A stretch of 61,471 bases of DNA, counting the filler. It is 11 parts of 11 records of this genome, joined end to end, with 100 filler letters (N's around TTAATTAATTAA, not from the genome) between each part and the next. Parts side by side here need not be neighbours in the genome. Positions count along the whole stretch, not along the records: positions 29,009 to 34,085 come from SRR7504441_9271; 10 more parts are not named here. One strand, 5' to 3'. The translations under genes and the position numbers were made by a program. Of the stretch, positions 1-52,600 are shown piece by piece (within the stretch, counting starts at the first letter, position 1; the number at the start of each line of letters is the position of its first letter). The notes under the pieces were generated by a model. The model was given only the letters and a program-made list of their open reading frames with translations. It did no database searches and had not been told where the DNA came from.

Positions 1-3000
1 GCCTACTGTGGTGGACTCATCAACTGGTGTCTTACTCCCCCTGAGAAACTCATACTTGCTGTGGTAGAGGGAAAGGATGATTTATGCAAATATGTTGTAA
101 GGATGTCAGAGGGACCATTCAAAGGGCGTTTGGCGCACATCGACACGCGCAGCATGCGTATTGCGGACTTTGGCTCTCGTGTACACGATTGGTTGCCTTT
201 CCAGGCTTCATCGTTGGTTCAAGCCGAGCCCAGCAGCTTCATTGATAAATTGGTTGGGTGCTGTGAAGACATGGATAAATGTTCCGGGCAGCCCATCAGC
301 AAGTCTGTCAACGGACAGTTAACAGCATTGTGTGACGCTATCGAGCAATCCAAGCAATCCAATGGCCTACTCGATATTCTGTCAAACTTCACCCCGACAT
401 CAATCAAAATGACAACAGGTGATGCACCAGGGCTTGAGGTAGAAGCACGATTCTCAATAGCTCGGGTTGACATCAAACTCTCAATCCAGATCAAATACGA
501 CATTGATTCCAAGAAACTAACCATGACTGCAAAGAATGAGAAAATGAGAGCCATCAACAAATACGTACAACTCGGGGGCTGGGTCTTGGCCCTGCAACAT
601 GATTTCAAAAGCTCTAAAAGTGAAATGAGTCTACAAGGGCAGACCAGCTTGTCATTTGGCATTAAAGGAATGAAGCCCCTCGTCGGTAAGGCCACGATCA
701 GGTTGCAAGCTGGTAAGATGTCTCTGCATGCCACGATCGAGTCAAACCAGAAATTGGAGCTGTTTGATCAGTTCAGCTTGAACGGAATTCAGGTGAGCAT
801 TACAAGCAGCTCAAAGCAGACAAGAATCACACTGCGAGCAAACGCCGCTGTCAAGTTTGCAGGCAAAGCCTTAGTGCTGTCTGTCAGAGGTGAAATCACA
901 TTCACCCAGGGGCGCACCACGCTTTCCATGTCTGGCAAGACACAGGGGATGCTGCCTGGAGTGTTTGGGCTGGATGTCGTCTCGATGGGCAAGTTCCGAC
1001 TGAATGTCGTGTTCACAGATGGGGTCGCTGACTATGCTGCACTCCTGGGCGTGCTGTGTGTGGGCGAAATTCAGCATTGCAAGGATGCACTCTCTCGTGA
1101 CAACAACTTAGTTGCAGAATTGACCTTGCTCTACCAAGCACCAGCTGGGAAGGCATGGGGTGGTGGGGATGCCAAACCTGAGGCTCTCAGTCAGAGCTCC
1201 TCATTCAGTGTAGACTCTTCGAGCAACACCCCCCCAGTCGGCGGGTGGGCCGCTTATGCCAAGGTCAGCAAGTTAAACCTCAGGAAAATCGTGCAGCTTT
1301 TTGCTGGATCAAGTGTCGCAGCCAAAGTCCCCAGCATTCTCAATCCAGGTCTGCTGCCAATTCAAGATGATTGCGACGAGACGGATGTAACCACCTGCTA
1401 CTGGATGATTGGCATGAGTGACAGGGACATGCTGCTGCCTCATCTCTCTCCAGCAATGGTGCTACATCGCGGAGTCTCGTTGCATGCGAAGATCAACTTC
1501 TTTGGAGAGCGTGGGATGGCCCAACTGTATGTTCCCGTTGGAGGCAACTCAGATAAAAAGAAATTCACATTCACTCTATCGGTGTTACCACAGGACGTCA
1601 AGTTTACTCCAGCGAAAACATTCGTCTCTGGCAGCATTCCGTCGGCAGAACCCAAGGCTGAAGAGAAGTTACCACGGATCATCAGCCTATTTGAAGACAA
1701 AGACGGCCAACTGCGTTACGAACTTGGGTGGCCTCAGATCTTTTCTTTTGCAAAGCGTGCTCTAAAGAAAGCGGCTCCCAAGCTTGCTAAAGCACTCGAT
1801 GTTCAAGGGCTTGTAGGGAAAGGAATCAATGCACTCGATTCAGTTATGTCCGAAAAGCTCAACCTGGACATGAAAGTGAAGCTCCACGGAGATCCAAAGT
1901 ACTTTTCGGTGGCAGGAGGGTACCAACTGGGAGGCAGCAAGATCAGCGCAGCTGTTCTCGTGTATCGTAAAGGCGGGACCAACTCTCTTGTGGCAGCAGT
2001 GTCATTCGATCTTGCCTTTTTTGCGCGACTGCTGGGGAAACTGATTGGTGGAAGCGTAGGGGATTTCTTGGCAAACCAGCAGCTGCTTGCAGCTATCCAT
2101 GTTGCTGTCATGATCTCAACTCATGACGTATCTTTGCCTCAGGGCTTTCAGTTGCCAGTGCCATTCCAAACCGAGCCAAGCGTGAAACGAGGGGTGTGCT
2201 TTGAAGGCAAAGTTGCCGCACCAGACGATTGTAAGGGAGACATCCTGTGCAACATCTTCAGTCCTGCCTTGCAGATCGCTCAGCCATTCTTAAAAGGGTG
2301 CTTCCATGCAGCGCTCGATGGCTCATCTGGTGCTGACTTCAAAATGGGTTTGAAGAACCTGAAATTGGGTTTTACCGATCAGTTAGTCATTGAAGAGCTT
2401 TCGTACTTCCTCAAGATGAACGCTGCTCCGCAGACTCCCCCTACGACTAAACTTGGGCTCAACCTAAGGGCAAAGCTGAAGCTTGAGGACCCGTTGATAT
2501 TCACTGGCCAGTTATATGTTGGAAAGGAAGGTGGCGCAATATTAGGGCTTAAGCTTGCAATGGCTGGTATGTTGAAGAATGCATTCGGCATTCCGAAATT
2601 TCACCTCGCCGACCTGGTTCTTGCGGGTGAGGTGATGGCTGCCCCTGGACCTCTTATTACAGTAAATCATCTTCTTGTGGGCGGCATGGTCTGCATCGGA
2701 GACTACAACGAATGCAAGCGCATGCAGTACGGCTGTAAGGGTTCGGATGACAAGGTTTCGAATGGCAAGGGTCCGAATGACGAGGATTCGGATGACGAGG
2801 ATTCGGATGACAAGTGTAATAAACAGTTGATGGACAAAACTGACGTGCGTTCTCCTGACAACAAAGAGGCTTGCAGCTCTTGTCCCGTAAAAGACAACAG
2901 ACAAGCCGAAGTAGCCAAGGACATCGCAAAAATCAACAAGAGTAAGAACCTAAAGGCCTTTGCAGCCAAAGCATATCTGGCTTTCCACAAGACAAGGGGA

Positions 3001-3390
3001 TATGCAGTGTATGCAGGGGTCACAGAATTGAGTTTGAACCAAATATCCCGAGCCTTTGCAGGGTATGATTTCCCAGACTGGATGGGCAACCCACGAATTG
3101 GGCCATATAACCAAACCAAATGCAAGGAACAGGGAGGCACTGCATGTTGGGCATACATCGCATTCGCGCCACTGGGGTTCAAGATCGAGGAACTTGGGGT
3201 CGTGATTCCAAGGGGCCAAACGATCTCTGGTCGACTCCACTTGTTTGATGTGTCGATGGGCTTCGAATGCACGGCCTTTGTTGACAAGCTACAGCTTCGG
3301 ATGGATGCCCCGCCGTTTAGCATTGGTCCTGCCGGCACACAGGTGCAAGTGTACCAAAGCAAGGATGGCAAGCTGGTCAGGGACAAAGGG
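1..3390 (+). CDS. Large uncharacterised beta-strand-rich protein with an internal duplication (partial at both ends)
   Basis: Frame open from base 1 to the contig end (>1100 aa) with no intron needed; two similar modules (GMLPGVFG..LCVGEIQHCK..AYAKVSKLNL and GMLKNAFG..VCIGDYNECK..VYAGVTELSL). Confidence 0.8.
2777..2811 (+). repeat. 15-bp coding tandem repeat (ATGACGAGGATTCGG) encoding an acidic DEDSD repeat
   Basis: Directly visible, about 2.3 copies. Confidence 0.8.
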
Positions 3391-18162: not shown

Positions 18163-18648
18163 CCGGTGCACGGCCTTGTGGTCATGATCATAAATGGGGT
18201 ATGAGCATTGCTGATTATAATGTACATTTTTATACTTCATGATTGTGATTACGAGTACTCGTATAGCAGATACAAGATTAGTGCATGGTTCNNNNNNNNN
18301 NNNNNNNNNNNNNNNNNNNNNNNNNNNNNNNNNNNTTAATTAATTAANNNNNNNNNNNNNNNNNNNNNNNNNNNNNNNNNNNNNNNNNNNNTGAGGCAGC
18401 AGTGACGTCGACCGACGATCGGAACTCTCATTACTTAAAGGATGCAATGCCTACAAGCTATCAGACCGATGCCAGTGTCGACATGGCGCATCTTTGGCAC
18501 TCGAATTCTTGGACAGTTGACGACCAGTTGTAATCAATGATTAAAGTGCCTCTCGATTCAAAAAAATGAATACAAGTATATTGTATTCATACAATCTTCC
18601 GCTATCCTATAATAATTATATATTAATTATATATCGGTTTATATACTA

Positions 18649-21600
18649 TCAATCGATGAAATTGCTTATAATTGTGGACGGGAGAGTCCTCCGGGGCGTG
18701 AGCCCCGTGCGTGAAGTGGACTGGCCGGGACCTCTTGGCGTCAGCCCGGTGCGAGACGTGGAATGACCAATGCGCGAGCGAGGGGTGATCACTGCGCTTC
18801 GCGGGCTGAGCACTTGGCTCATTGTCGGCTGTTGCAGTTCTCTGTTGTAGTCCTCGTTGCTCTCTTTGATCAGATCAGACGTCGCATCAAACCAGAGTGT
18901 CTCGCCAGTCTCGTACGCCCGATCCTTTTGCACTATGTGAGCAGTGTTACTCGCCACAGATACTATCATGGAAACATCGTGAAGCAGCCGCTGCAGCACG
19001 TGCATCGGCTTGCTCACCGGACACAGCGGCTTCTTTGATACTCCATCGATTCCATCGCGGGCATCGAACTGGATCTCACTCTCCTCCCAGCGCTCTAGCA
19101 ATAAATTACCTGCACAATCGCCGTAATCAGCAGCGCGGGCGAGGAGTGACGCACAGAGAGCCTTGTGCCGCTGTGCCACTTGTACTTGCATCTTCCGGAT
19201 GGTCTTAAGCAGCTCCTGGTGTGGCGCAAGTTCTCTTTCAGCCCAAGGCCGGAAGTTGTCATCTGTCATAACGAGGCTCGGGTTGGCTTCTTTGATCTCG
19301 TCAAGAGCTGTACTCAGCATGCCCTGCCATTCCAAACCAATCAAAAGCCGAGGGTCGGCTTTATTCACCAATGTCTGCTCCGCGTTGTCGATATCCTCCT
19401 CCGCCTGCCATATGTCCAGCTCGCCCACCGGCAGGAACTCATCAAACGAGTCCTCGTCTGTCTGAGTAGCAGGGCTGGACTCAAAGCCTTGAAGGCAGGC
19501 ATTCAGTTCTACCAGCTCCTTGGGGTCGAATCCTTCGAACAGCGGGTCGTCCCAAAGTACATCAAGTACTGCTTCCATAGCAGCGCTTGTGCCAATTGGG
19601 CGATCACTATCTGGTTCTGGGTTCCCATTGAAACTTAAATTCTGCAATCAGCACAATTATCGCAGAAGTGTGCAGCAAGGGTTACCTGCCCGTTTGCGTA
19701 TACATCTTTCCCCAGGAAAATATGGAGCCCTAGTTTCTCTCGTCCAGGATCCGACCGCACCATTGTCGGAAAGCCATACCTAAATGGCCCGTGAGGCATC
19801 TTATGATACTGACTCTCGCCAGGCTCGACAAAATTACACCTGACACTCTACTCATTTCTGTGCAAACCCGAGGCGGAATACCAGTTGGCGAACGCGAGCA
19901 AAGCACGTACCAGGCAGCTGAATGACCGGCTTTGCATTATCATGTCTACAGAGGAAATGATGCGCTTCATGTGCTGCAGGCTCCGCTGCACAGGTGCGAG
20001 CGTCTCAGGCATGTCGTTGACTTGCCGGAGACATTCGATCCGCTTGTCTGCCTGGGGTATTTGCATGAAATACAGCAGTGCAAACTCGACGATGTTGGGC
20101 GTGGGAAGTTCCGCGCGAATGGCAGGCTTATTCCAATCCCAGACTGTACCGAGCCTGGAGAGCTCGTTGGGATCACTAGTCCTGGGAGGGAAGAAGTAAG
20201 CCTTCAGTTCCTCGGTCTCCTGGTATACTACCTCTTTGGAGCCGACCTTAATGATGCCATCCCTCGGAATCATTTGGGACGCACATCTGATACTCACCGG
20301 GTCGGTTGTGAATGTCTTGTCCATTGCCAGGAACGAGTCACGAAGGGCTACGATGAGTGCTTCGTTGAAAACACGTTTTTTCAGATGAGAATGAGTTTCC
20401 TTCAAGCGCCTCCCAACCTCAGACCGCTGGCCGTTCTGCAGCGCCACTTCAACCGTCCTGTAGCGCTCAGGCACGCCAAGGACTGCATTAACTTTCTGCG
20501 GCTTCACCAACTCGATCTCATATGTAAAGGGAGGCCCACTTAGCCCCATGTGCGAAGACTCAATGATGAAGCGATCGATACGAAGTCTCTCCGGCTCTTC
20601 CTTGGAGACCAGAACTATCCCATCCTGCTCCTTAACATCGCCCTCGAGCTGGAAGGTTCTCCCGCTAACGCCCTCACATCGCACGACCACAGACGTGTCT
20701 TTGTTCAAAGTCTCTACGGCTACAGCAGTCTCTTGGTTAACCTGAGCACCGCCAGTTACGCCCGCGTATACTGAAAAGGACCTTGGCAGGGTCGCCAGTC
20801 AGTGCAACAGAGAGGCGGGTTGATTGATTCGCCTGATTGGTATCAAACTTGAAGTTGACAGCTCCTCGAATAATAATCGACACAATCGTGGGATTCGCCA
20901 CAGCCTGCCGTACAACTCAGGACACAAGCGGCGATATGGCCGCACCTCTTCAGCGTCGCCAATGTTGGTGTCAAGGTCTAATGTGAAGTTCCTGACAACC
21001 TTTTCGCTTCGCTGGAACTTGCAAAATAGCGCCTCGCAGTATTGCTGCAGATCGCTGCTTTCCTTTGCCAGTGACTCGGTAAACCTGGTGATGTGACGAG
21101 CTGCTAGCCGCTGTTCCTCCTCCCATGTAGCAACTGCAAGCTCGAGAGAAGCTGCTGCTGCCTGAGCTATAGGCTCTAATGCCATTTCTGCTTCTTTCTT
21201 GCATCGGAAGACAGCTTGACAACTCTTATACACGTCCTGGATATATGTGCTGTCTTCATGCTGTCCAGGATATGTGGCGTTGCTCATGGCAATTTTTGAT
21301 AACAGCGCTGCTTCATGCAAGACCATCTTGGCTGCTTGAAGCGCTTCCTGCATGACCTTTTGCTGCATGCTGCTTCGAAGACTCAGCAGGCGGGCGAGTT
21401 CATGCTCTACAGCATGTGCTTCATGGTCACTGATGCTGTCTGCCATCATGAGATCATAAAAGAGGTTCCAGAAATCTGAGTTGACATAGGTTTGCTTCGT
21501 GCCAGGAGATGAAGGCGAGGCGACCGGCGATTCGACCGGGGAAGGCAGTCCAAAGATCCCTGGAATGACACAGATTCGCATGGTATTTGCCTTGAGGTTC

Positions 21601-24298
21601 TTTGCAGCTCGCATTTGGTGATTGAGCCGTTTCTTTTGCTCTTTTTTTGCCTCATCGTGCAAATCGGCACCTGGCTCGAGGCCAATACGACTCCTCTCGT
21701 CAAGCAGCTGTTCCAGCGACGAGAGAGCTGCCTTTGCTGCTGCTTGCCGCATCCCATCCGAAGGCAGCGACTCAATGCGAGCAAGCTCGGCCTTTGTGCT
21801 GGGCAGGTCGTAGATGCTTCCAGCGGCTTTGAACTTTTTGACTGTGGAGCATTGATCCCCGCCAACGCCAGCAAACTGGTCCCAGAATTGCTTCTTGGCG
21901 GTCCCGGGCAGTTGGAGCGCCCTCTTGCCTTCCGGCCAGTGGCGCCGAATCTTGCCCTCGCCTCCTCGATTTCCTTTACCGCCCTTGCCCTTGAACCAGC
22001 CCATACTCTCTCCAGCATCCTTTGCAAGCTCATCATTCACATCTGGCCAATCTTCCATCTCGAGTGCCTTCAAGGTTTCTACTGTGGACAGCAGCAGAGA
22101 ATGGTTAACGACCTGAGCCCTGGATGTCTCTTTCAGATCTTTCCGCAGCATCTCGGGTGTCTTGAGCCATTCAATGGCCACCTTTTCAGCCCTGAATGGA
22201 TTGAAGCCTTCCTTGTGCTTGAGAGTGTTTTCTAGTGTGAGGCGGAGATCCGTCAACCCATCGCGGTTCTGCTTCCAGAGTGGAATCATCTGTCTGTCGA
22301 TTCTGCCAAACTGTAGCAGATTCAACTCGGGGTCCTGCCACGCTGCCTTCAGATTCACCCCAACCTGTTCCTGCAACCGCTTGTCTTTGAGCGCTGCTTC
22401 AACCGCATCCTTTGCCGCTTCCTGCTCTTTCTCACGCTTATACACAGCCTTGTCCATGATGAGATTCTTGATTGCCAAGTCCAAACTATCGATAGCATCA
22501 GGTCGCAAGTCATCCAAGCTGTTACCCACGACCGAATTGACCTCACCTGGGTCTTGCAGGTTGACCACCTTGGCGCCCCAGCCGCACTTGGGGCAGTGCG
22601 GAAACCTCGTATGATCCCAGAAGCGCTTGGTAGGGCAGGTGATAACACCATGCGCCATTACTGCCAGCTCCTGGAATGCCACCAGTTCGTGAAGATTGAA
22701 CGGCACACGCTCTTGCATGGGCTCGCCAAACAAGGTATCCGTGCTCTTGTGACACCCTGAATTGCGTAGGATCTCGAGAACTGCGTGCTTGCCGATAGGC
22801 ACAATGATCGCATCGTGGAATGGCTGGTCAGGGTCCTCAGAAAAGCTGTCGATTTGAGGGTCGAAACCAGGCTCGCGGTGTAGATCGGAGGTGAGCATCC
22901 CCTGGTTGTGCTGTGCCACGCGTCCAACCAGCCCACGGCCTGTCGGAAAGCTTTCACCGACTGCACCTGGCGCCTGCACTTCTTCTGCAGGTATTTTGGG
23001 ATCCCCTGTCGTGCTGTAAACAGCCAGACGGGTAATCTGGCCATCGTGTCCCAACTTGTACAGAATTGCAGTCTGCTCGACCGGGTCCAATGCTGGGTCA
23101 TTGAATGGCGTCAGGGCGCAAGCTGCCTGCATAATCCGCGGCGCTGCATTCTCAAGTGCAAGTGGCCCAGCCAAGTCTGGAGAATCTGCAGATGACGTCT
23201 GACTGAGAACAGTGGTGAATTGACCGGACTGCTCACCATCCTTGGCGCTGGATGCGTGCACCGCTTGGGGCTTTGATGCGTCGGCCATGGACCTACGGAG
23301 ATTCTGTATTTGCTCCTCAAAAACTGCCTTCTGGTGCCGAAGTTGCTGCTGCGCCAACTTTAGGGCCTGTGCCGGATCGGCTACGGACGATAAGCTCTTC
23401 ATTTGTGATTCAGATGCCTCCTGGTAACTCGTCTGTAAGCTGAGCAGCCCCTGCTCAACTTTGGCCAGTGCACCCCCATTGCCGGCCCCTTGACCGGGCC
23501 CGAAACCCGCCCCGAGACCTGGCCCTTGGCCTGCCCCCTGCCCAGGCCCGAGGCCGGCTCCTTTGCCCGGTCCCTCCCCAGGACCTTTGCCTGGACCTTG
23601 ACCAGCCCCTTTGCCTGGACCAAGGCCGGCCCCTCGCCCGGCCCCTTGACCGGGTCCGAGGCCAGCCCCTTTGCCACGCCCAAGCCCGGCTCCTTGACCA
23701 GGTCCAAGCCCACCCTCGCCTCTAGTGGCATATGCATGAAGTGTCTCGATCGTGCACTCGTACTTCGCTTTCTGGTGATCGAGTAGCTTTTGCATCTCGC
23801 GCTTTTCCTCGTCAAACTTTTCCTGCTGCCTTCTCAGCTGTACATCTGGAACCAAAATTAACACTGGCTCTTGCTGTGGCACTCACCAGCAGACGATTCC
23901 TCGTTGTAGTGCTCCAGCTCCTGTTTGAATTTCCCCAACCGCCGCAGCTCGCTCTGCAGGCCACGGATGTGATCCTCCTGCACCTGAATTTTGTCTATTC
24001 GCCGACCTGTCTCCTCGATAGATCTGCATCCCCCCTGAGCCTTCAGGCAGCCACTGAAACACTCACGCTGCATTGGCCGAGCCCAACGCGCAGGCAGCAA
24101 TGTCAATTGCTTCGATTTCCAGATTGAATTCACGGATCGGGTCGGTCCATAGGACTTCCGGTTGGTCCGCACCAGTCTGTCAGAAGGCTCAGTCAGCAAC
24201 TCGAATAATCACATGTTGGTGGCTCGTCAACTGAAGCTATCCCATCGGTAGGTGGCTCGTACACTGAAGTAGGTTCATTGCGGTTGAAAGAACAGCAA
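18649..24298 (-). CDS. Large multi-exon protein: coiled coil, Gly-rich repeats, GAF domain and divergent formin FH2-like region (5' truncated)
   Basis: GAF-like FPTGRGLVGRVA..FDPQID..IIVPI..PFNLHE; FH2-like MQIPQADKRIE..SRSFSCLVRALLAFANW..YGF; ORFs join in frame via short GT-AG introns. Confidence 0.65.
23480..23715 (-). repeat. Coding degenerate tandem repeat (G-A/P-G-x-G-P-G-K/Q)n
   Basis: About ten ~24-bp units visible in DNA and protein. Confidence 0.8.
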
Positions 24299-29008: not shown

Positions 29009-29205
29009 GGACTTGCGCAGCAGGTCGCGCAGCTCGAGCGCGTCCAGGCAGCCATCGCCGTCCTTGTCACCAATCTTGAACAGCCTGAAGCCAGCGCGAG
29101 CAGGTCAGGGCGTGGCCAAGCAACTCCTAAGGCCCGCGGGGCGCACCTGATCATATAATCTTCCAGCTTGGCTGCGGGCACTGTAGTGAGGTCCGGCATC
29201 GCCAT
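29009..29205 (-). CDS. 5' end of an EF-hand protein
   Basis: Spliced LEDYMI-RLFKIGDKDGDGCLDALEL, a canonical EF-hand loop. Confidence 0.65.
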
Positions 29206-29592
29206 AGTGCGGGCTGGGCTGAGCCGACACAACGGCTGCTTTTGCCCGTTTTTTCGTCGGCCTGCGGGACTGACGGATGAGCTGGCCTGAACCTAATGCT
29301 CAGATCATAGGAAGCAATTAAATCAAATTAGCTTGCAAAGTAGCGAGCGGACCTTGGTGTGCAAAGAGGGAGGACCTCGCACGGGGGTGTGGTTGGCCGG
29401 CGCTGATCCGCCAAATACTGGTCCGGTTGGGCGGCCTGAGAGCAGCTGATCGCTGACTCAACTGTTGCTCAGCTTTAATCAACGGCGTGTTACGATTTCT
29501 CTTTCGCAGAAATTCTGGAGAAACAAATCGGCGCCATGTCGCTCCCGCGGTAACGCTTGTTCCGGGCGACTGTTCCGGGGTTGCGGTGCGAA

Positions 29593-30660
29593 ATGCTGCC
29601 GTTCACCGACCACTACGACACGCTCAAGCTGCCGTGCGAGGCCACCGACTCGCAGATCAAGAAGGCCTACAAGAAGTTGGCCAAGATCCACCACCCAGGT
29701 GCGGCCGATGCCTGCGCCCGACTGACGGCCCGGGGCCAGACCGCAAGGTTGGCCAGGAAGGCGAGGCCCGATACAGTGTAGCCTACGACTTCAAGCGGCT
29801 GCAAGAGGCGTACGAGGTGCTCTCTAACGAGGCCCGGCGCAAGGAGTACGACGCCGAGTACAAGCTGTACGCCGAGGAGCAGGAGAGGTACGGCCCGCTC
29901 GGCCGGCTCGTACCAGCTGGCGGGGCCGCAGAATCGCCAAGGAAGCCGCCAAACAACGGGCCAAGCGCGAGGCGGAGGAGGCCAAGGCCCGGGCCGAACT
30001 GGAGGAGAAGCGCCAGAAGGAGGAGGTGCCCCGCCAGCTCGTGAGCCGGCTGACGCGAGCCGTTACAGAGGCGCCGTCTCCGCCGCGAGAAGCGCGAGGC
30101 GGAGAAGCGTGCTCAGGAGCAGCGCGAGCTGGAGGATGCGGAGAAGCTCTCCGATGAGCTCTTCATGCAGCAGCTGTGAGTGAGGGCCACCGACCTGCAC
30201 TCAGTCCGGCGGCAGATATAACGACTTTGGCGAGGCTGGCGACGCCCCAGCGTTCCAGCTCCAGTCAATAGAACAGCCGCCAGAGCGCCGGCCGTCCGAT
30301 AAGGAGAATGAGAACCCAGGCAAGCCGGAGCCTGAACGGAAGCCCGCCCGGAGCAGCCGGGTCCCGAGGGTGTCGGACTCGAATCTCAAGACCCCATCCG
30401 AATATGTGAGCGCAGACCCGAGGCTGAGCGACATGAAGGAACCAGATCCACGGATGAGTGACACAAAAGAGGATGAAGTGGTGAGCCGAGCCCAGGGTTG
30501 GCTGCTGACGGGGGTGCAGCAGCGGTCGGAGTCACCTCGGGACAGTAACTGGGACCTCGCCGCTGAGATGGCGGCTACAAGATTCAGCGATCCCGTGATC
30601 GATTCGCCTTTCAACCTATGCAAAGCTACGACCACAGTTTGTGATCCAGACATTGAATGA
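29593..30660 (+). CDS. J-domain (DnaJ type C) protein
   Basis: DHYDTL..IKKAYKKLAKIHHP|D (HPD split by an intron), FKRLQEAYEVLS..RRKEYD. Confidence 0.85.
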
Positions 30661-30865
30661 GTGCATTGTGCACAATACTACAAGTCAATACGCCTCCGTC
30701 CTAGTACGAGTACTAGTAGTACGTCAAACATAATCACATGTAATTAACATGTAATCCTGAAACTAAAGTGACACTTTCCAAAAGCGATGGCCTCGCAATC
30801 CGACTTCGACCACCAATGAGATAACATTTATATTGTATGTATAATTGAGAGAAATCTTGTTCAAA

Positions 30866-33800
30866 TCATAAGAAACGCTGGGCTAGTCTTAGACTTTGAG
30901 CCGCCATAGGTTCGCCTTGGGTATGCGCCCGAAGCGTTGAGTTCTCAGGATCAGTCTGCTCGATTGGCTCCAATGTCAACCCGTTCTTGATGCCATCAGG
31001 GTCAACCCTAAAGCTTAGTGGCGTCAGACTGTCCCTGAATCCTTTGTACTCGAATGCGATCAAACGTAGAGCCTTCAGCTGATAACAGGTCCTCAGCACA
31101 GCTTCCATTGTTGGTTGGTGCATATCTGCGAACAGATCTGCATCGGCTCTCAAATTGAGAAGATCCAAGAATCGAACTCTTGCAGTCTCGATTCCCACCT
31201 GCCAGCTGTGGCATCACGCAGGCAGGGTGGCGCTTGTTCACCTCCGAGGACCCGGAGCGTCTCATCTCAAGCATCAGGGCCAGCAGCAGCATTCTTTGGA
31301 ACTCGCTACCCTGCTGGATTGTCTGTACAATCGTGCTGCCAAACAGGTCCTTGTTGGCACGAACAATGTCGTCAGCAGAGACAAGCCCATTCGGATCTTT
31401 AGCCTCTGCAATCTCGGAAGCTCTTCTGCAGATCTCGAGCGCACGGCGCAAGTCACCCGATACCGCCTCGACCTACATAATCAGGTTTGAAACCATTGGC
31501 CTCAGCTGCCAGCTCACCCGTTTAGCACAATAGAGGATAGCATTGGGCATGAATGCTGCTTTGATTTGAGTAACAGGTGCCAGCCTCTCTTTCACTATTT
31601 CCTGAGCGCACACAGGCAAGTGACAAGAGGCGGTATTTGAGGGGTGACCTCGATTTGCTTGTGCAAGTACGGCCGAAAGATGAGGTGCTGCAGGCCGATC
31701 CGCGAGCCTGAGCGCTGGTTGAGTCGCTCTGGCAGATCAAGCGTGTTGGCGATCCCAATCATGACTAGCCCAGGCATCATGGACCAGTTGGTCAGATTAT
31801 ACACCACTTGCTGCTGCTTGTGCAGCATCAGCCAATCCAATTCGTCCGCCAGCAGCACACACACCGGGGTATCTGGTCGGTACTGGGTTTTTAGTCTACT
31901 CAATTCCTCAAAGTGCGACTTGAGGTTCTGGAGCGCCTTAGAAGGCGCCACCTGTTCCCCACGCAGTGCCCTCCAGAGCAGACTGTAGGCATGCTGTGCA
32001 GTGGGAAGCCGCATGCTGTTCATCTCTACATATGCAAACTGGCCCAACTTGCCCTCCCGAACTTCTTGCTGCAACGTGGAGATGCATTCGTGGACTGTGG
32101 CAGTCTTGCCAGTTCCAGGGATGCCTGTAATGTACAGGCAGGGTCCGATCGATCGTTTCTGCACGGCGCTTCTAACAAATGTCATGACCATAGCCTTCTG
32201 TTCATCGCGGCACAGTAGCTTTGATGGCACTGCAGAGACCTATTCAACATCAAGGATCAGTCTTTCATATTAGCTGCAGCCTGGATACCTGGAGCTGCGC
32301 CCTGCACTGCGCATGATGGCTCATCGACGATGTGGAACCGGCCTGGGCAGGGCCATGCACAAACGGCTTTGCCAAGGCGAATGGTGCAGATGGGGTTGCT
32401 GAGTATGCTCTGTATGCTGGAAACCCTCTGCGGGTGGACTGGCGCCGATTGGACCTGCGATACTCGGCATCATTGTAGTCATGATCTCGCTCATCCGGTT
32501 CTGCACGGGGCAAAGCACAAGCTGTCTGCAGACACAGCAACAGCACATTAGTGCAAACTGGCATCAGATTTGTACGCATGACTAAAGTTGTCACCTCTCT
32601 GCGGCAAAAGAACACATCCTCACTGTCATTGGCCTGACTGCGCTTAGCCCCAAATTCCTGTACAACCAGTGCTCAGGACTAGGGCTTCTTTGTAAGCACC
32701 TTGAAGGAGAGGACCTTGACAGCTCGCTCGACAGAGTCGAGATCTACTCTATCGGTTTGTTTGGTGAGCACAAGCTCTGCGGTCTGCCCAGCTGGCCCGT
32801 CATACCTGCACAGCAGCCGTGTCACTCGCATAGACCAGCAGTCAGCTGACCATCGCACGAGCGCATACTTGGTGCCATCGCGCTCAGACAACTCTTCTAT
32901 CCTTGCGATGACAGGATAGTCCTCGTCCTCGACACGAAACGAAGCATGGTCTCCCCGTCTTATTGTCTCGTTACCTTTGACAAACCCTGAGCGCTCTGAC
33001 ACACACAATCAGCTCCTTGACTCCTGAGCGCAGATCACCTTCGTTCAGCCATCGAACTTGCCAGTACTGGAGCTCCGCAAGCTCACGTGCAAAGTGGTCA
33101 TATCCCTTCTCCTCAAACTGCCTGTCGAACTCTGCAATGAGCTCGGGTGCTTCCAACTCCTCAATCGACTTCCATTCACAGTGCTCCAGACTGAAGTTCT
33201 TGTATTGCACAAGATACATCCCATCCTCCTGCCGTCTTTGTAGGATCTGACACAAGATACATCAAGGCTGGCCAGCTAAAGGCTGTGCACCCGTTCTATC
33301 TCATACTGCTCGTCCTCCTCCTCCTCGTTCCTGCTCGCCGCCGTTGGTGCGAGCTGGGCCCCTGGTTGCATTCCCTGCGTGTCTGCAGCGGCCGGGTGCT
33401 CGTCTTGCTTGGCCTTGCGAGCGTAAAATTGAATCAGTTGGCCAATCATCTTGTCCTTGTTGGAGCTAAAGGGGATGCCTTCCTGCCTGCATAGCTCTTT
33501 GAGCTCATCGACCCTCTTATTCTGGTAGTACTGTCGGCTTGTTTTGGGAATTTGAAATGGTGCTGGTGCTTCAAGAGGCACAGGATCTGGGCAGTCTTGT
33601 GGTGCTGGTGGCACACGATTCTCGTTGTTGAACTTTATGAGAGCAATCGTGGTTGCAGTCCTGGAAGTGTTGAAGGGCTTCAGTTTCAAGTTGACGCAAA
33701 TTTGGTAGAGCTGCTGTGGGGTGTAGTTTGTCAGCTGGTGTGGTAACTCATCAGGAGGCAAGCCATACGGGTAGGTCTCCACAGTCCAAAATTGCTTGTT

Positions 33801-34085
33801 GATTTTTGGAGGTTTGCTGGATGTAGCCTTAGGCTGTGGCTTGCGGCTGCTGAACTTCTTGGATTTGACAGGTTTTGAGTCAGCAGGATGGCTTGGCTTC
33901 TTACTTTGCTTTGGTTTGGGTTGTTTGCTAGGTGCTGCACAGAAGTAATGGATCAGACAGGTGCACAAGCATTAGCTGACCTGCACTACTGACAGAGACT
34001 GAAGGCGCGTCCGGTGTTTGCTGGATCCCCTTGGACGGCCCCTCTCTGCATCGAGCCCCGCCAGCGTGGCCTGGGTAGTAGTCGA
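30866..34085 (-). CDS. ORC1: Origin recognition complex subunit 1 with SAP-like, chromo and BAH domains (5' truncated)
   Basis: CLYITGIPGTGKTATV Walker A, LLADELD Walker B, IANTLDLPERL, GDLRRALEICRRA; BAH (IARIEEL..VFFCR); chromo (YEIER|IL..YLVQYKNFS..EW). Confidence 0.88.
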
Positions 34086-37723: not shown

Positions 37724-40700
37724 TTACATACTCTTAGGGATGGGTGCTCCAACTGCATGGCAAATGATCTTGACTAGCTTTTCCGTGATGTCCTCTTTCC
37801 CAAGCATCTTGGCCAACGACAATCGGTTCACTGTGATGCCAACTGCTAACTTGTGCGCCTGCAGGCAGAACCCGAGGCTACCTCCGATCCCACGATGCCC
37901 AATCCCGACAGCCCCGCCGAAGTCAGTCAGTGCATACCCCAACCCATGCGACGAGCTCATCCCTGGCTGCGCTGATTCGGGCTGCACTGAATCGGTGGTA
38001 TGCGCCACCTTGTGCACCAGATTGACGGTCTCAGCTTGGAGAATTCGATGGCCGTCTATCTCGCCGCCTGCTGCCAGTGCCGCATAGAACTTTGCCAGTG
38101 CCCGAGCACTGCAGTGTCCGTTGGCTGCTGGAATATTCGCTCTCCTGACCGAGTTCATGTTGAAGAGCAGCGGAGAAAGCCAATTGCCGGCCTTGGCAGG
38201 CTGTTGGCTGTCCTCATCTGGTTGCTGATTAAGTATGCTGTTCTGCTGCTGTAATTGGTTGATTCTGTCAAACATTTGGGATAAGTCTGTGTTGTTCGTC
38301 TGGCTCTCCTTCCCTTGCATGAATAAACCTAGCGTTAGCTGTGCAACCTGTTCATCACGCTCAATGACTGCTTGCGGCAGCCCTGTGCACATATAGAACT
38401 CATGCTCGATTCCCAGTGGTCCAGCTATCCTGTCTGTTACGAGCTCACTCAGAGGCATTCCGGTCACCCGCTCCACGAGGCCACCCAGCAGCCAGCCATA
38501 GGAGAGGTAGTGATATCTGTACTCCTGCCCAGGCGGGCTATCGGGCTTAGATTTCTCTATTTGCGTAATCATCTTCTGCCAGTCTATCAGGTCGGCGAGC
38601 TTAACTTTTGTGTCCACTGCCTCGTGCAATCCGGCTCGGTGCGCCAGAGCATCAGCCACAGTGCAGGCGGCCTTAACTGAGCCTGTCGGCGCAAATTGCG
38701 GCCAATGCTCGACCATCCGACTGGCCAGCTTCAGCTCGCCTCGATCAAGCAGCGTGTGCACTGCACAGGCCAACACGGCTTTGGTTACTGAAAAGACATT
38801 AAAGAGTGAATCTGGCTGAACAGGCCGGGCATCGGCCTCGCCCAGGGTACCAGCACATACATGAGCGAGGGGTATCCCGTTTTGTAGAACCGAAACCTGA
38901 AGCCCAACTATATCGGCGTGCTCCGCCGCTAGGAAGCTCATCAGCCGCTGCTCGAGCGGAGAGTTGATAGACCCCCGTACAAAGGGGCCCACCGGCAGAG
39001 CGCGAGGCACTCGATTGAGCAGCACCAACTGAGCGTGGCTGGCAAGAATCTTGAGATAGGGCAGCCTGACCTGACAAACCGGTTTGAACAAGGCTGGCCA
39101 CGCTCAGGTACCTCAAGCTTGCTGCAGAGCCCGCGGAGCAGGAAGAGCACTCGCACCAGAAATACTAGCTCAGCAGGCCACGCATCTACCGGGTTGCGCA
39201 TGGGTGTGCCCGAGGTCTCCTGCTCCCGCTTGACCTTGCTTTTCAATGCTTTTTGGAATGTTTTGGTCTTGGCTCGCATCTCGTCCGACGGTGCGGTGTC
39301 TCTTAGCGTGAACCTGGTGGCCATGAGCGGCGGCAGAGCTGGCCAGATACCTTAGTGCCTCCATGTCGAGCATCGGATCCTCGCGATTCAGCTTTAGACC
39401 CATGTTTACAAATCCGTCGAGCAAGCCGCCAAAGTCCATCGCTCCAGCCGAGAAGACCATCTCCGCAAATGCCAAGCGCTTGGCTGGTTCGAGCTGCTTT
39501 GTCATCCCAAAGTCGAGCAGCACAGGAGTTGCGATGCCATGGGCGCAGCACACAAGCAGGTTCCCAGGATGTGGGTCGCAGCTGCCGGCAGATCTGGTCA
39601 AGCCCGGCCCAGCCAAGCGGCGCACTTGAAGAAGCCGTCGTTAAAGATTTGCCGGGCAAAAGAGTGGCAGAGCCGACTGAGAAGCGCATGCACATCCACC
39701 TGGTGGGCCCGCAGCGCCGCTCGGTCGTCTATCTTGAATCCAGCGCACCAATCCATCACAAGCACCCGTTCGCTCACGAGCTGCTCCACTGGGCTTGGAA
39801 CCACTACCTGTATGCAACTCGAGTCGGCGGCCTTGCATGCCCGGCGCAAGTTGGCGGCCTCATTCACAAAGCTGAGCTCCTTAGTGACTTCCGTGCTGTA
39901 CTCATCCACCACCTGACCTCGGCGCGTCAAGGCACGCCCCCAATCAGTTCACTGACCGGGCCAAAGTCCATCCTCGGATCAAGCCAGCGCAGCCAGCTCA
40001 CAATCACCGCGAGGTCCTCCAGGTCCTGGCGCACCAACCGGCCGATCTCCGGGTGCTGGACCTGCCCCGTCCGCTCCAGCCCGTCGGACTGCCGGACCGA
40101 CCTTGACCGCCACCTGCTGGCCTCCCTGTTTGAGCACCGCCCTGTGGACTTGTGCGATGCTGGCGCTCGCGACTGGCTGTGGATCGAACCAACTGAAAAG
40201 AAGCTCGATCGGCTGGCCCAGCTGCTGCTCGATGCTGGCGCGCACGTGGCCGTAGCTCGAGGTCGGCATTTGGTCCTGCAGCACTGAGAGCTCGCGAACC
40301 CACTCGGGTGGCAGCACGTCGGCCCGGCTGCTCAGATACTGGCCAATCTTCACCCAAAGACCGGCGCTGCGGCGCATCATTTGGGCAACCCGCCGACTGT
40401 GTCCGAGATGTGCCGCCTTTGTGGCCTGCTCCAGCTGGGCGTCGGACCAGCCGGCCCATTTTGCACGCAGCGAGAGCAGCCGCAGCCCCGCGACCACCCT
40501 GACCGCCATCCCATACACCGCGAGCCGGCGCCACACCATCCGTGCCCTGCAGACGCTCCAGCCCAGCAGCCCACATAGTCCTAGCGCCAACCACCCCCCG
40601 TTACTGAGCTCTAATTGCCATCCGGCCAGGAAGCCGCACAAGCAGCAGCACACAAGCAGCATCTCTGGCCGGAGCCAGTTGAGCGGCTCCTCCGGGACCG

Positions 40701-41451
40701 GCCCGGCTGCCCCAAAGTCGGTGGCGGAGTCGAGCCCAGTGCCGCACCGGATCGCCATGTCCTGCTGCTCGCGCACTCGTTCATGCACTCGCTCGGCCAG
40801 CGGGCAGACCTTCTGCTGGCTGACAGCACGAGTGGGCAGCCCGATCCAGCAACTGGCACAGACCCTCCCGAGGCCACTCCGCCGATGGGGCGAGCAGTCG
40901 CCACACACCAGCTGGCCGCACGCCCGGCAGTGGTGCCGTCGCGTGACCAACCCGAACGGGACAGCACACAGTGGGCAGCCAGTCCGCGCCTCGTCTGCTT
41001 CCCAGGCCGCCCGTGGGCACGAGCTCAGCTCCGGCTCACTCTTGGTGGGCCGCACCGCTTCAGCCGCCAGGCGCAACGGCTCGCGCAGCTGGCTGAGCAA
41101 TTGGCGCTCCCCGCGGACGGCGATGCGGCCTGTGAGGAAGGCAGCTGCCGGGCTTATCCGGCCGTACAGCAGGGCGGGCAGGTCGCCCCCCGCCGCCCCA
41201 GTGACGCAGCAGCCGGTGCGGGCCAGCTGGCTCGAAGACACACGTTGCACTCCTGTCACTCGCCCGCCTGCAGCGGCCACCGCCCACCGGCCGAGGTCGC
41301 CGCCGTCGAACCCAACGCAGCTGCCGTCCACGGCGAACCCCCCGGCCGGGTCGGACGGGCCTAGATATTCGAAGAAGGCATCCAGGCTCAGGTGAGCGGC
41401 TGGCCGCGGCGCAACCAGATCCTCGCCCGCTCCGCAGCAGATGCTCGCCAT
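37724..41451 (-). CDS. SCP2 + FYVE + TM + ABC1 (ADCK/UbiB) kinase + beta-lactamase-family fusion protein
   Basis: AFLTGRIAVRG (SCP2); WEAD..RRHHCRACG..VC..CS (FYVE); VKIGQ, ASASIAQVH, VAVK, DPHPGN, LLDFG (ABC1); FSVTK, YHY (serine hydrolase). Confidence 0.88.
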
Positions 41452-42064
41452 GGCTGATGAGCACAACCGGGAGCTTTCCCCTCAGCTTGGCGCTTTCCCC
41501 CACCTGCAGGCAACTGTACTTCAGTTGGCGCTCGTGTCTCACCTCAACAAGCTTCAGTTTTACAGCATGCGCAAGGGACTGTTTCACGATCCCCAGAGTT
41601 NNNNNNNNNNNNNNNNNNNNNNNNNNNNNNNNNNNNNNNNNNNNTTAATTAATTAANNNNNNNNNNNNNNNNNNNNNNNNNNNNNNNNNNNNNNNNNNNN
41701 AGCGGCCACGGGAGAAGTAGTTTCAATCAACGGTTGGCACCAGGCACACGCGTCTGTGCCGCTGCGTAGATGGTGCTACTCGTGCCCGTGGAATACTCGG
41801 CACCTCACAGGTGGGGCATATGCATTCAATGAATAATGATCCCTCTAGATCTATAGATGATCAAAGGGCATCATGGCATGTGCACACAGGTCCACAGGCG
41901 GCCAGGCCGCAGACTCGGGACGTCGAATCATAGCCGCCCCGGCTGTTCGGTGGACAATGCGTGATATCGGCGACGATTTTAATTAAAATGTCATACGCAC
42001 GCTTCATGACTTTGTATGCACCTCAAGTTTAGCAGGTTATCAACGTACTGTCCTACGCCATGGA

Positions 42065-45056: not shown

Positions 45057-46922
45057 TCACCAGGGCAGCTCACTGCCATCGTAGTTCAGGAACATCCCAT
45101 TCTGAATTGGCTGCAGTTCCTCCACAACACGCAAGCAGCCTTGAACAGAGACTGCTATCCCCATTGAAGTCTGCCGGACCAGAGTTGTATCGCCCGATTC
45201 AACGCTATCAGTGGCCCAAATGGAGCCAGTGCACCCTGGAGAAAGGGCCACCACAGAGAACCCCGAAGGCCCAAGCTCACTAGCGAGCACCCGACTAGCC
45301 ATGTTGAGCGCTGCACGGCAGATTCTCAAGCTCGGGCTCACATTGACTGACAGATCACTCACAGGTGCGGCCTGCCCGTAGTGTCAAATTGATTAGCCGG
45401 GCGGGGTTACCTCCGATATTGAGCCGACACGCGAGTTCAAGATTGCAATCTTCTTGATTGTCGACTTGTGGAGCAATGGAAGCAGGCTCTGCATCCCAAG
45501 GCGTCAAGTAGCAGCCAAGCTTTAATCACCTGGACAAGCTGGACGGTGCACACAGTAGTGGCTTCAAAGCAGCGAGTCATATTCTCCATGCCTCTTGGGG
45601 CTAGCAGGCTGTGCTCGTCCAGCTCGCTCCTCGATTCGGAGTTATTGTTAAGCAGCAGCACATCGATGCGCTCGATCCCATGCTGCGTAGCCAGCGTCTC
45701 CGCCGCACCAGCGACTGATGCAGCGTCAGTGACATCCATTGTCAGGCACACTGGAGCTGGAGCCTCAATCTCAGATGCGAGCTGGCTCAGCCGCCCCTGC
45801 AAGTCCTCCAACTCGCTGGCCCGTCGGCAAGTGGCTATCAAGCGCGCCCCAAACTGCACAACTTGCCCAGCTAGTGACCAGCCAATGCCATCGCCGCAGT
45901 TGGTCACTACAACCACCGCGCCAAGCCAACCGCTACCCTCTGCGTCGCCCCCAGCCGTTGCCGGGGCAACCCTCAGATGGCTAGCATTCGCATTCGACGA
46001 GCGGCGCAATATAGCAGCCTTGAGACTAGTCCAAGACGGGCCAAACACCAATGCCTGCTGGGTGGACAGCGGCTGCTCCTCGTGCGGGATGAACACGGCA
46101 TGGAGCTGCTTCACGAGCGGAACCTGCCACAGCCCATCGGATGTGCACTGGGCAAGAGGGCACACCACGTCGCTGTCGCTCACGACTATCGAGAGGTTGT
46201 GATCTTCAGAGCTCTGGGACAGCATTTCGATTGCGCTGCCCGAGAGGAATCTAAAGCCTTTCGATAGGCTGTGCAGGATCTTCCGGAGCCTCCTTCCAAC
46301 CACGGAGACAGAAGAGACCTGCGATAGCTGTCAGGTGCATCCAGCCTGTGCTGTCACCTCGTGCTTGACGGTGAGCTGCCCCATCGACTCGAGGGTGGTG
46401 ACCAGCTCTTTGAAGCCCTGCGACTCGACCCCTCCGGGCACATAGTCTAGCGTCACCTGGACGGCCAGCTGTTAGCGCGCGAGCGCCGCTCGAGTCACCG
46501 TGACAGAGGCCTGTGAGGTGGCTATCAAGTCGACGGAGATGCCACGCTCCTGATCAGTTGCTCAGCCACCAGCGAGGCAGGCTTGCGGGCACCTTGAACT
46601 TGTCGAAGAATCGGGCGAGGAATCCAGTTTCCTGCCACATCTTGAGGCTGGACAGCGTGAGCAGTGTCATCTTGGGCCTATGCACCACTGTGCAATCGAT
46701 CAGCCGGCCCCGGAGCGTGCTCGCACCCGCCAGAACCACCGCCTCCTTGAGTCCATTAGCCTGATCGTCCGGGCATATAGTTGTGCCCTCCACGTCGGGG
46801 TCGCTTGTCATTCTTATGCGGACCGGTACTCGCGCCCACTCGGCTGGCCACAGGCACTTGGGATGAAGCACCTACCCGAATTCGCCCGCCCGGCCGGTCC
46901 GCAACTACCTTGGCCCCTAGCG
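45057..46922 (-). CDS. Aspartate kinase (two ACT domains) fused to a C-terminal CsgA-like SDR domain (5' truncated)
   Basis: VLHPKC, MWQETGFLARFF, GISVDLIATS, VSVVGRR, NLSIVV, VFGPSW; then VVVTNCGDGIG, MDVTD, AALNM, NGMFLNYDGSELPW. Confidence 0.85.
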
Positions 46923-50711: not shown

Positions 50712-52600
50712 CTACTCGTACAAATCTAGCGCAGCGAGCACGGCCGTCGTCACTTGTTCAGGCTGCATCTCAGCCGTCACTTGCACCGCAAACGTGGAGC
50801 GCTCGTCCGCCCCCACCGGGTCGGACGGCTTGCTCGGGAGCTCCGTGTGGAATCTTAGCATCTCCTCAAAGCTCTCTCCTTGCCCGGGAATCCCGGGGTG
50901 CTGCTGCTTGAAATTGAGCATAAATTGCTCAACACTCATCCCCTGCTCTGCGGCCACCGCCTGCAGCCGCGCGTACTTGCGGTCTACCAGCAGCTGTTTG
51001 TCGGCCTGAAGCACCACCACTTCCATCTCTGGGCCTAGCCACGTCCTGGCGGATTCTCGCATTGCCCGAGTAACAGCCGCGTGGCTTACAACAAAGTGCT
51101 TGCCCACGCACTCGCCCCGTCGGTGGGCCGCCTCGCCCAACGCTTGCTCGTAGAACCGCTCCCACGAGCCAGGCTCCACGGGCAACCCTTGAAGCCACGG
51201 CAAAAACAGCCCCTGGGCAAGCTCTTCGAACAGGCGTTTCCTGCCCGGATCCACGCGCAGCTGCTCTTGTTCGTTCGGGAGCCGGCCGCTGTCAGCTATT
51301 GGGTCCAGCGAGCTCTGCCAGGCGTCCACGCAGAAGTGGACCCAGCCTCGGGCCTTGAGCTGGTCCGCCACAGTCGTCTTACCCACCCCAGCCGTACCCA
51401 CAAGAAATACAAACCGGCCCCGCCCATGTACTGCCTCATGGACCAGCCGACTGTACGCTCGCGCCTCGGCGGCCAAGCTATGCTTCTGCTCGAACAACAC
51501 ACGGGCCGCGCTCACGAGTCGATCCCTCAGCGCTTTCGAGTCCAGCAGCCTCCCGGCTTGGGCTGCCATCTCCTCTGGTGTGTCAAACAGGAGCGCCGTG
51601 ATGTTGTGCTCCAGAATGGCCGTATTGCCCGGTATGCGGCGAGCGAGCAAAGGGACCCCGATCTGCATCGCCTCGAGCAGCGCATTCGAGGCGCCCTCGC
51701 TCACCGAGCTGTTGAGCATAATATCCGCCTGGCGCATTACACCAACCAGCTCCGCCTGCGGCACCGGCGGCATATAGTGCACAGCGCCACCCGATCGGCT
51801 GACTGCTGCCATGAACTGATCCGAGTACCCGTCGTCACTCCGAGTCGGTCCCAGCACCACCAACACACTCCCCGGGTGCGTCCGCCGCAGCGCCTTCATC
51901 GCCGCCACCGCGCACATGGGATCCTTAACTCTGCGGACTCCCGCCACGAGCAACAGCACCGACGCCCCGCCCGCCAGCCCCAGAGCCGCCCGCAGCCCAA
52001 CCCCCTGCCACCCGCGCTCGCCTCGCCTTCTACACAAGGCCGGTCACCTCCACCGCTTCCGGCAGCTCGACCGACGGCGGCACGATCCTCACCCTCCCGG
52101 CCATCTCCGGCCATTTCTGCCCGGCACTCGCACCGGCCAGCGCGTCCGGCACACCGCCTTGGCCTTGTCGGCCAGCTCGCTGTTGAACGCCACTGTGACA
52201 GTTGCCCGCCCGACCGACCGTCGCATCAGCCGCTCCTCCTCGGGGCTCCAAGCCTCGTTGGCGTCGGTGCCTGCCCTCCGCTCCGCCGGGGCCCCGGCCA
52301 CACCGCACCGCCCAGGACCAGGATGGCGGGCGTGCCGTCCGCCGGCAGGTGCACTCCGGAGCGCAGCGCGTGGAAGGCCAGCACCAGCTCGGCCGGCGGC
52401 GGCCCGGACGGCGGGAGCGCGCACGGGTCGACCAGCTGCACCCGCCAGCCGCTCCGCTCCAGATGCCGGGCTATCCGCTGGGCGGTCACTTGGTTGCCCC
52501 AGCCCCGGGCCAGCGGCGAGAGCACCAGCGCTCGGCCGGGCGGCCGGGAGGACTCCAGCCGGTCCAGACGGCAGTGGAGCGCCCGGATGCAGGGGTCCAT
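50712..52600 (-). CDS. GLT1D1-like GT4 glycosyltransferase fused to a C-terminal P-loop kinase-like domain
   Basis: GNQVTAQRI, HALRSG, GG|TDANE, RRVKDP, NSSVSEG..ALLEAM, RRIPGN; then FLVGTAGVGKTT in the same ORF. Confidence 0.82.

Follow-up and report, generated by a model that had tools for sequence, protein, structure and literature searches.

In a window of 61,471 nt, the whole stretch of DNA that was analysed, an ORC1 gene of a microbial eukaryote, possibly marine, was found whose predicted product carries additional modules ahead of its BAH domain and ATPase. On balance, we consider it probable that this ORC1, to which an HP1-like chromodomain and SAP-type modules (one or two) are fused, anchors ORC on methylated nucleosomes and nearby DNA. 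The chromodomain and SAP extension of ORC1 is apparently conserved and unreported.

The window consists of 11 contigs (3-10 kb) joined by N44-TTAATTAATTAA-N44 linkers, so that gene neighbourhood across the linkers is meaningless. The ORC1 locus occupies the minus-strand end of the piece 29009-34085. Its model comprises 11 exons separated by 10 GT-AG introns, which measure 42-49 nt in nine cases and 69 nt in the tenth, with splicing predicted from the open frame. The resulting frame of 914 codons (2745 nt, from 34083 to 30866) contains a single stop, the terminal one at 30866. Since the frame stays open as far as 34085, where the contig ends, and contains no in-frame Met ahead of residue 198, the N-terminus of the protein is missing. 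Pfam analysis of single-frame stretches gave the predicted order weak SAP-like segment, SAP, chromodomain, BAH, AAA+ and winged helix. All segments named in a preliminary description of this DNA were located where it had placed them, on the minus strand and in contiguous exons of one spliced frame; of the extent it gave, 30866-33930, the 3' limit was retained, but the gene runs beyond 33930 to the contig end. The features are as follows.

30866-34085, minus strand: ORC1 gene, its 5' part cut off where the contig ends; predicted splicing, stop-free frame
34083-33981, 33934-33291, 33246-33039 and 32995-32851, minus strand: ORC1 exons 1-4, predicted splicing
32805-32700, 32657-32595, 32525-32289 and 32239-31649, minus strand: ORC1 exons 5-8, predicted splicing
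31601-31518, 31472-31242 and 31198-30866, minus strand: ORC1 exons 9-11, predicted splicing
33786-34085, minus strand: basic Pro/Ser/Lys-rich low-complexity N-terminal stretch, incomplete and likely disordered
33618-33740, minus strand: first SAP-like segment, weak (Rho_N E 0.02, Pfam)
33408-33536, minus strand: second SAP/HeH-type helix-loop-helix, net basic (SAP_new25 E 1e-4, SAP E 0.007)
33309-33326, minus strand: acidic tract directly before the chromodomain, from sequence
33103-33308, minus strand: chromodomain, split by a 44-nt intron at 33290-33247 (Chromo E 9e-8)
32595-33057, minus strand: BAH domain over four exons (BAH E 6e-7, Pfam)
31344-32239, minus strand: ORC1-type AAA+ ATPase (AAA E 1e-7, Pfam; ORC1 chains 127-130 bits)
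30971-31331, minus strand: C-terminal winged-helix region (Cdc6_C E 0.13, weak)

Tail to tail with ORC1, a J-domain gene (DnaJ, E 3e-9) was noted on the plus strand at 29554-30660. Elsewhere in the window, the lower-GC pieces 1-3390 and 18392-24298 contain long uninterrupted ORFs (1130 aa; 1027, 316 and 332 aa) with no Pfam match; they are unlike the mini-intron genes and are possibly viral or mobile DNA. On the minus strand, a FYVE finger, an ABC1 kinase-like domain and a beta-lactamase-fold domain follow one another at 37727-41481, probably in one gene; 50715-52043 encodes a group-1 glycosyltransferase domain and, after it in one frame, a P-loop/AAA-like domain, and at 45440-46330 an ACT domain shares its frame with a short-chain dehydrogenase domain.

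The strongest support for the predicted chromo/SAP-ORC1 fusion being a single gene comes from P0002, a JGI predicted protein of 1297 aa that contains all the domains in one chain. P0002 aligns colinearly with the ORC1 model (36% identity over 821 columns, E 7e-129), is 55% identical to the window ATPase exon, and shows the Pfam order SAP (E 0.025), Chromo (E 1.5e-4), BAH, AAA and Cdc6_C (E 9e-7). Regions of the window gene and P0002 were compared with 1000 shuffles each in 21 comparisons. For chromodomain against chromodomain and for BAH against BAH, 0/1000 shuffles reached the score, the chromodomain pair scoring 77 against a shuffled mean of 24.

The N-terminal end of the model is basic, as evident from 18 basic versus 4 acidic residues among residues 1-85, of which 51% are P/S/K; a similar basic tract is also present in P0002. 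The first SAP-like segment had been called weak, and this was borne out by the Rho_N match, by a p value of 0.008 against the first SAP of P0002 as 1 of 21 comparisons (p=0.26 against its second; 1000 shuffles) and by a structure model of two helices with a pLDDT of about 40-50. Its assignment as SAP is doubtful. Both Pfam matches of the second SAP lie under the Pfam cut-off, and 0/1000 shuffles reached its score against either P0002 SAP. Modelling from the single sequence gave a confident two-helix fold with a pLDDT above 90, which superposes on the Tho1 SAP with an rmsd of 1.0 A over 41 columns. Besides SAP structures, those of LEM and Rho-N also superposed, none of the matches reaching E<=0.001 because the domain is small; its atlas neighbours, SAP/HeH clusters with scores of 0.82-0.85, are a lead only.

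The window chromodomain reached 32.3 bits in Pfam against a cut-off of 25.1, and an independent chromodomain profile scored it at 31 bits. Its best PDB matches were HP1-alpha/CBX5 (E 1e-5), and those of the P0002 chromodomain, modelled as three strands plus a helix with a pLDDT of about 65-84, were also HP1-alpha. The acidic tract ahead of the domain is longer in P0002 than in the window gene. The preliminary description had the aromatic residues kept, which holds for the window gene, where all three cage positions (Y245, Y264 and F267 in model numbering) are aromatic, but not throughout for P0002, where the cage reads Val/Tyr/Tyr, with Val at the first position, and the core Trp is replaced by Phe. 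In both proteins the second cage residue is Tyr in place of the usual Trp. The polar finger positions, Glu19/Asp58 in CBX5, are Gln244/Glu281 in the window and Glu/Ala in P0002, so that the upper finger in the window is Gln, not Glu, and the lower finger in P0002 is Ala. The window chromodomain is net negative (14 acidic versus 7 basic residues), and that of P0002 is also net acidic. Polar fingers and acidity have been tied to a preference for H3K9me3 (PMC3013012), and the predicted cage, fingers and net charge of the window chromodomain match the HP1 class as defined there. The cage and finger changes in P0002 imply that methyl-lysine reading may not be conserved. No Chromo_shadow match was found by Pfam in the window stretches, where the gene is 5'-incomplete, or in P0002, which argues against an HP1-type dimer.

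A different use of these modules is conceivable but unlikely: the fusion would be real, with the chromodomain binding a non-histone partner, RNA or the basic tail of ORC1 itself, and the SAP serving as a plain RNA/DNA tether. The three aromatic cage positions and the HP1-like charge of the window chromodomain speak against such a ligand, while the cage changes in P0002 and the Trp-to-Tyr exchange in both chromodomains speak for it. Structural matches to the second SAP include RNA- or protein-binding folds (Rho-N, 3'hExo, LEM), the RNA-binding SAP-like folds among them pointing the same way, and human ORC1 binds RNA (PMC10366126). In HP1a, a hexa-glutamate motif before the chromodomain binds basic motifs of fly Orc1 (bioRxiv 10.64898/2026.07.17.738698); here, the acidic and basic parts share one chain.

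The BAH match is just under the Pfam cut-off, the domain being split by introns. A model of the chromo-BAH part of P0002 matched BAH structures with E 1e-9; its linker has a pLDDT under 50, and hence no claim on domain packing is made. Of the positions aligned to the pocket of the rodent ORC1 BAH (Y64, W88, E94 and Y115, the aromatic ones reportedly from Kuo 2012), the Trp alone is shared by the window gene and P0002 in a distant and rough alignment. The pocket glutamate of ORC1 BAH is E93 in mouse (PMC8093215). The methyl-lysine pocket thus looks degenerate in the two aligned sequences. A degenerate pocket is also seen in the alignment of P0031, an ORC1 without chromodomain, and the BAH pockets of fly and yeast ORC1, likewise without a chromodomain, are degenerate (PMC12719912); pocket loss therefore does not prove a hand-over to the chromodomain.

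Two introns of the BAH region were noted separately. The 45-nt intron at 32850-32806 is in frame and stop-free; its removal drops the pocket-glutamate loop, and its retention restores the length, not the sequence. At the BAH end (32594-32501), the 69-nt intron (32594-32526) is longer than the other nine and is followed by a second acceptor-like stretch. This splice is uncertain, and in frame either way. At this site the model is without the conserved Tyr after the last strand and without about 20 residues present in P0002, and in P0190 the reading frame seems to continue across an in-frame intron near this position. Two-intron and GC-donor readings of 32594-32501 were tried by hand; none was open and restored the ~20 residues of P0002.

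Alignment of the AAA+ region revealed Walker A, Walker B, sensor 1, the arginine finger and sensor 2 to be all intact. The window ATPase exon scored 127-130 bits against fly/human ORC1, 95 against yeast Orc1 and 72 against human CDC6; P0002 is likewise nearer to ORC1 than to CDC6 (218 versus 115). Lid domains were also matched by Pfam between AAA and Cdc6_C in the ORC1 model, and the winged-helix region, whose own match is weak, aligns to the P0002 region matched by Cdc6_C. As judged by these comparisons, the window gene is a true ORC1, with BAH ahead of the ATPase.

The intact ATPase motifs and the grouping of the protein with ORC1s weigh against a mainly non-replicative role of the added modules, by which ORC1, perhaps as a specialised paralogue, would be a heterochromatin/silencing protein in the manner of Sir3 or Arabidopsis ORC1a; nor did a second ORC1 of this organism turn up in the sequences covered. 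ORC1 does function in silencing in yeast, plants and animals (bioRxiv 10.64898/2026.07.17.738698; PMC9992703), and an HP1-type reader suggests heterochromatin. We rate this role as more unlikely still than a non-histone ligand; it is not exclusive with anchoring of ORC on methylated nucleosomes.

Contigs of 4/5 listed RNA runs, present as short pieces only, contained none that spans a splice joint, and each run contains <=12% of the words. Weak hints of splicing or expression, short of proof, were obtained from the RNA piece X1 (239 nt, zero differences), whose match lies in the exon of the first SAP-like segment, and from two RNA pieces of two studies, which start at 31197 and 31200, at the 5' edge of the last exon. 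Indirect support for the predicted ORC1 splicing came from P0216, P0217 and P0236 (58-71% identical), single-exon ORFs, each ending at the exon-8 donor and two also starting at its acceptor. If the SAP and chromo exons belonged to another gene, the preliminary description would fall. This is contradicted by P0002 as a single protein and by the reading frames: without splicing, the chromodomain frame runs into a stop at 32973, within the first BAH exon; this BAH exon lacks a Met, which leaves no room for two genes. That two adjacent genes, or a chimeric metagenome contig, were taken as one is very improbable: the contig is short and cut 5', and the RNA contigs of 4 runs hold no spliced read, but a second gene would lack both room and start codon, mini-introns are uniform and third-position GC is similar (0.53-0.63) throughout, and the independent JGI protein with identical order already largely refutes an artefact.

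The position of the gene was analysed with FastTree on an ATPase-region alignment of 54 sequences (the model plus 53 of 293 fetched proteins, picked for spread) and 288 columns, the tree being rooted at the midpoint and with no CDC6 outgroup. The window gene, P0216, P0217, P0236, P0002, P0001 and P0190 formed one clade with a support of 0.986, separate from PHD-bearing green algae, animals and fungi. Its deepest split places the window gene on one side and P0002 on the other, implying that the chromo/SAP modules were retained for long and that the fusion is probably older than the clade. The chromodomains are specifically alike and share the Tyr at the second cage position, which makes a single fusion likely. 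The five further members are fragments without N-terminus, so the whole layout is seen in two sequences only.

Within a set of 279 ORC1-like sequences (222 with >=300 residues before the ATPase; animal/fungus-heavy, near-duplicates included), a profile built from 28 unrelated chromodomains detected a chromodomain in two, the window model and P0002, and Pfam scans of 43 proteins of the set agreed with this count. Among the best 80 of 205 confirmed stretches of a metagenome scan, neither a chromodomain nor a close relative was found, the best full-length identity being 44%. The chromo-BAH part of P0002, used as query against 1.84 billion representatives, returned 11 proteins, namely a 124-aa fragment (92%) and ten unrelated proteins with a chromodomain alone or a BAH alone; the window model itself reached only 34.5 bits (E 0.0014) against this query, so that an equally distant relative would have been narrowly missed and this blank tells little about rarity. 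In the survey of ORC1 in 132 eukaryotes by Ocana-Pallares et al. 2020, the figure legend gives AAA, AT_hook, BAH, Cdc6_C and PHD, plus some sporadic domains, and neither Chromo nor SAP (PMC7058166). That the architecture might already be widespread is contradicted by this legend and by the count of 2/279. A chromo/SAP-ORC1 was not described in the literature titles and abstract openings covered; subscription journals, InterPro and bioRxiv supplements lie outside this scope, and a prior mention is possible. The available sections of PMC6602975 and PMC9967165 contain nothing on a chromo-SAP-BAH-ORC1 layout, and a Tetrahymena Orc1 carrying a chromodomain, considered as a candidate, found no support in those of PMC9967165.

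Under the preferred reading, in which ORC is anchored on methylated nucleosomes and nearby DNA, the basic tail and the SAP modules would bind DNA independently of sequence, the job of the Orc1 disordered region in animals. The acidic chromodomain would bind a methylated lysine of the H3 tail, most likely H3K9me2/3 because of the HP1-like polar fingers (Q244, E281). The BAH domain, with most of its H4K20me2 pocket gone, would act as a nucleosome contact only, and the AAA+/winged-helix core, to judge from its family, would join ORC2-5 and CDC6 and load MCM as usual. The fusion would replace the HP1/ORCA adaptors that take animal ORC to repressive chromatin. The fuller proposition, that ORC1 of this clade is an HP1-like reader docking ORC on H3K9-methylated nucleosomes, with the SAP pair clamping DNA, the BAH pocket dead and licensing by a repressive mark adaptor-free, is possible but in our view doubtful.

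The elements of such a mechanism have precedents. ORC is steered by the methyl-lysine readers BAH-H4K20me2, ORCA and HP1 (PMC12719912), binding between ORC and HP1 has been conserved among fly, frog and human (bioRxiv 10.64898/2026.07.17.738698), and the N-terminal disordered region of fly Orc1 tethers ORC to DNA (PMC11077064). With methyl-lysine readers and an N-terminal DNA tether known, the initial suggestion of a possibly undescribed mode of origin licensing goes too far. In the available part of the 2025 licensing review, ORC is linked to chromatin by BAH, the disordered region, ORCA and HP1, and an ORC1 chromodomain does not appear (PMC12719912). What appears to be new here, on the predicted protein, is that the methyl-reading and DNA-tethering jobs are hard-wired in ORC1 as chromo and SAP domains.

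Compared with animal ORC1 (BAH-IDR-AAA+-WH), the window protein has the same ATPase core. As in animal ORC, an N-terminal DNA tether and recruitment to methylated repressive chromatin would be combined (bioRxiv 10.64898/2026.07.17.738698, PMC11077064, PMC12719912). Animals use separate H3K9me3 readers (HP1, ORCA/LRWD1) and a BAH that reads H4K20me2, whereas in the window protein an HP1-like domain lies in the chain and the BAH pocket looks degenerate. The window chromodomain resembles that of HP1/CBX5 in being preceded by an acidic tract, in its three aromatic cage positions and in its predicted polar fingers; it differs in the Tyr for Trp at the second cage position and in that no chromoshadow was found. 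The chromomethylases CMT3/ZMET2 are DNA methyltransferases that likewise have BAH and chromodomain in one protein, the chromodomain lying inside the catalytic domain, after BAH; unlike the ORC1 core, theirs is an unrelated DNA methyltransferase. The ZMET2-H3K9me2 structure was among the structural matches of the P0002 chromo-BAH model. Fission-yeast Orc4 bears N-terminal AT hooks. AT-hook ORC subunits resemble the window protein in having a small DNA-binding module fused N-terminally, but theirs are AT hooks without a histone reader and that of the window protein is SAP-type; one ORC1 with AT hooks is given in the survey figure (PMC7058166).

A parallel in evolutionary terms is the BAH-PHD of green-plant ORC1 (Arabidopsis ORC1a/b; 5hh7), likewise a histone-tail reader that ORC1 gained through a lineage-specific domain rearrangement (PMC7058166). 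The plant PHD reads unmodified H3 (PDB 5hh7) or H3K4me3 (PMC7058166) and lies inside BAH (PMC9992703), unlike the window reader, which is a chromodomain ahead of BAH and is accompanied by SAP modules. Pfam detected no PHD in the window ORC1 or P0002, and both fall outside the Chloroplastida PHD-ORC1 clade in the FastTree analysis. The N-terminus of ORC1 would have gained a histone reader at least twice, as PHD in green plants and as chromodomain in this clade.

How origins and sites of ORC loading are chosen in eukaryotes without sequence-defined origins is an open question, and the animal ORC-HP1 link is weak, disordered and hard to dissect. A lineage with a folded reader and DNA-binding modules on ORC1 would be a compact test system in which the modules are separable, and the chromo/SAP-ORC1 layout may serve to mark a protist clade that has hardly been sampled. 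If the fuller proposition is true, the protein would represent a naturally occurring fusion of ORC1 with HP1 and an independent third solution to chromatin reading by ORC1, after mammalian BAH-H4K20me2 and plant BAH-PHD.
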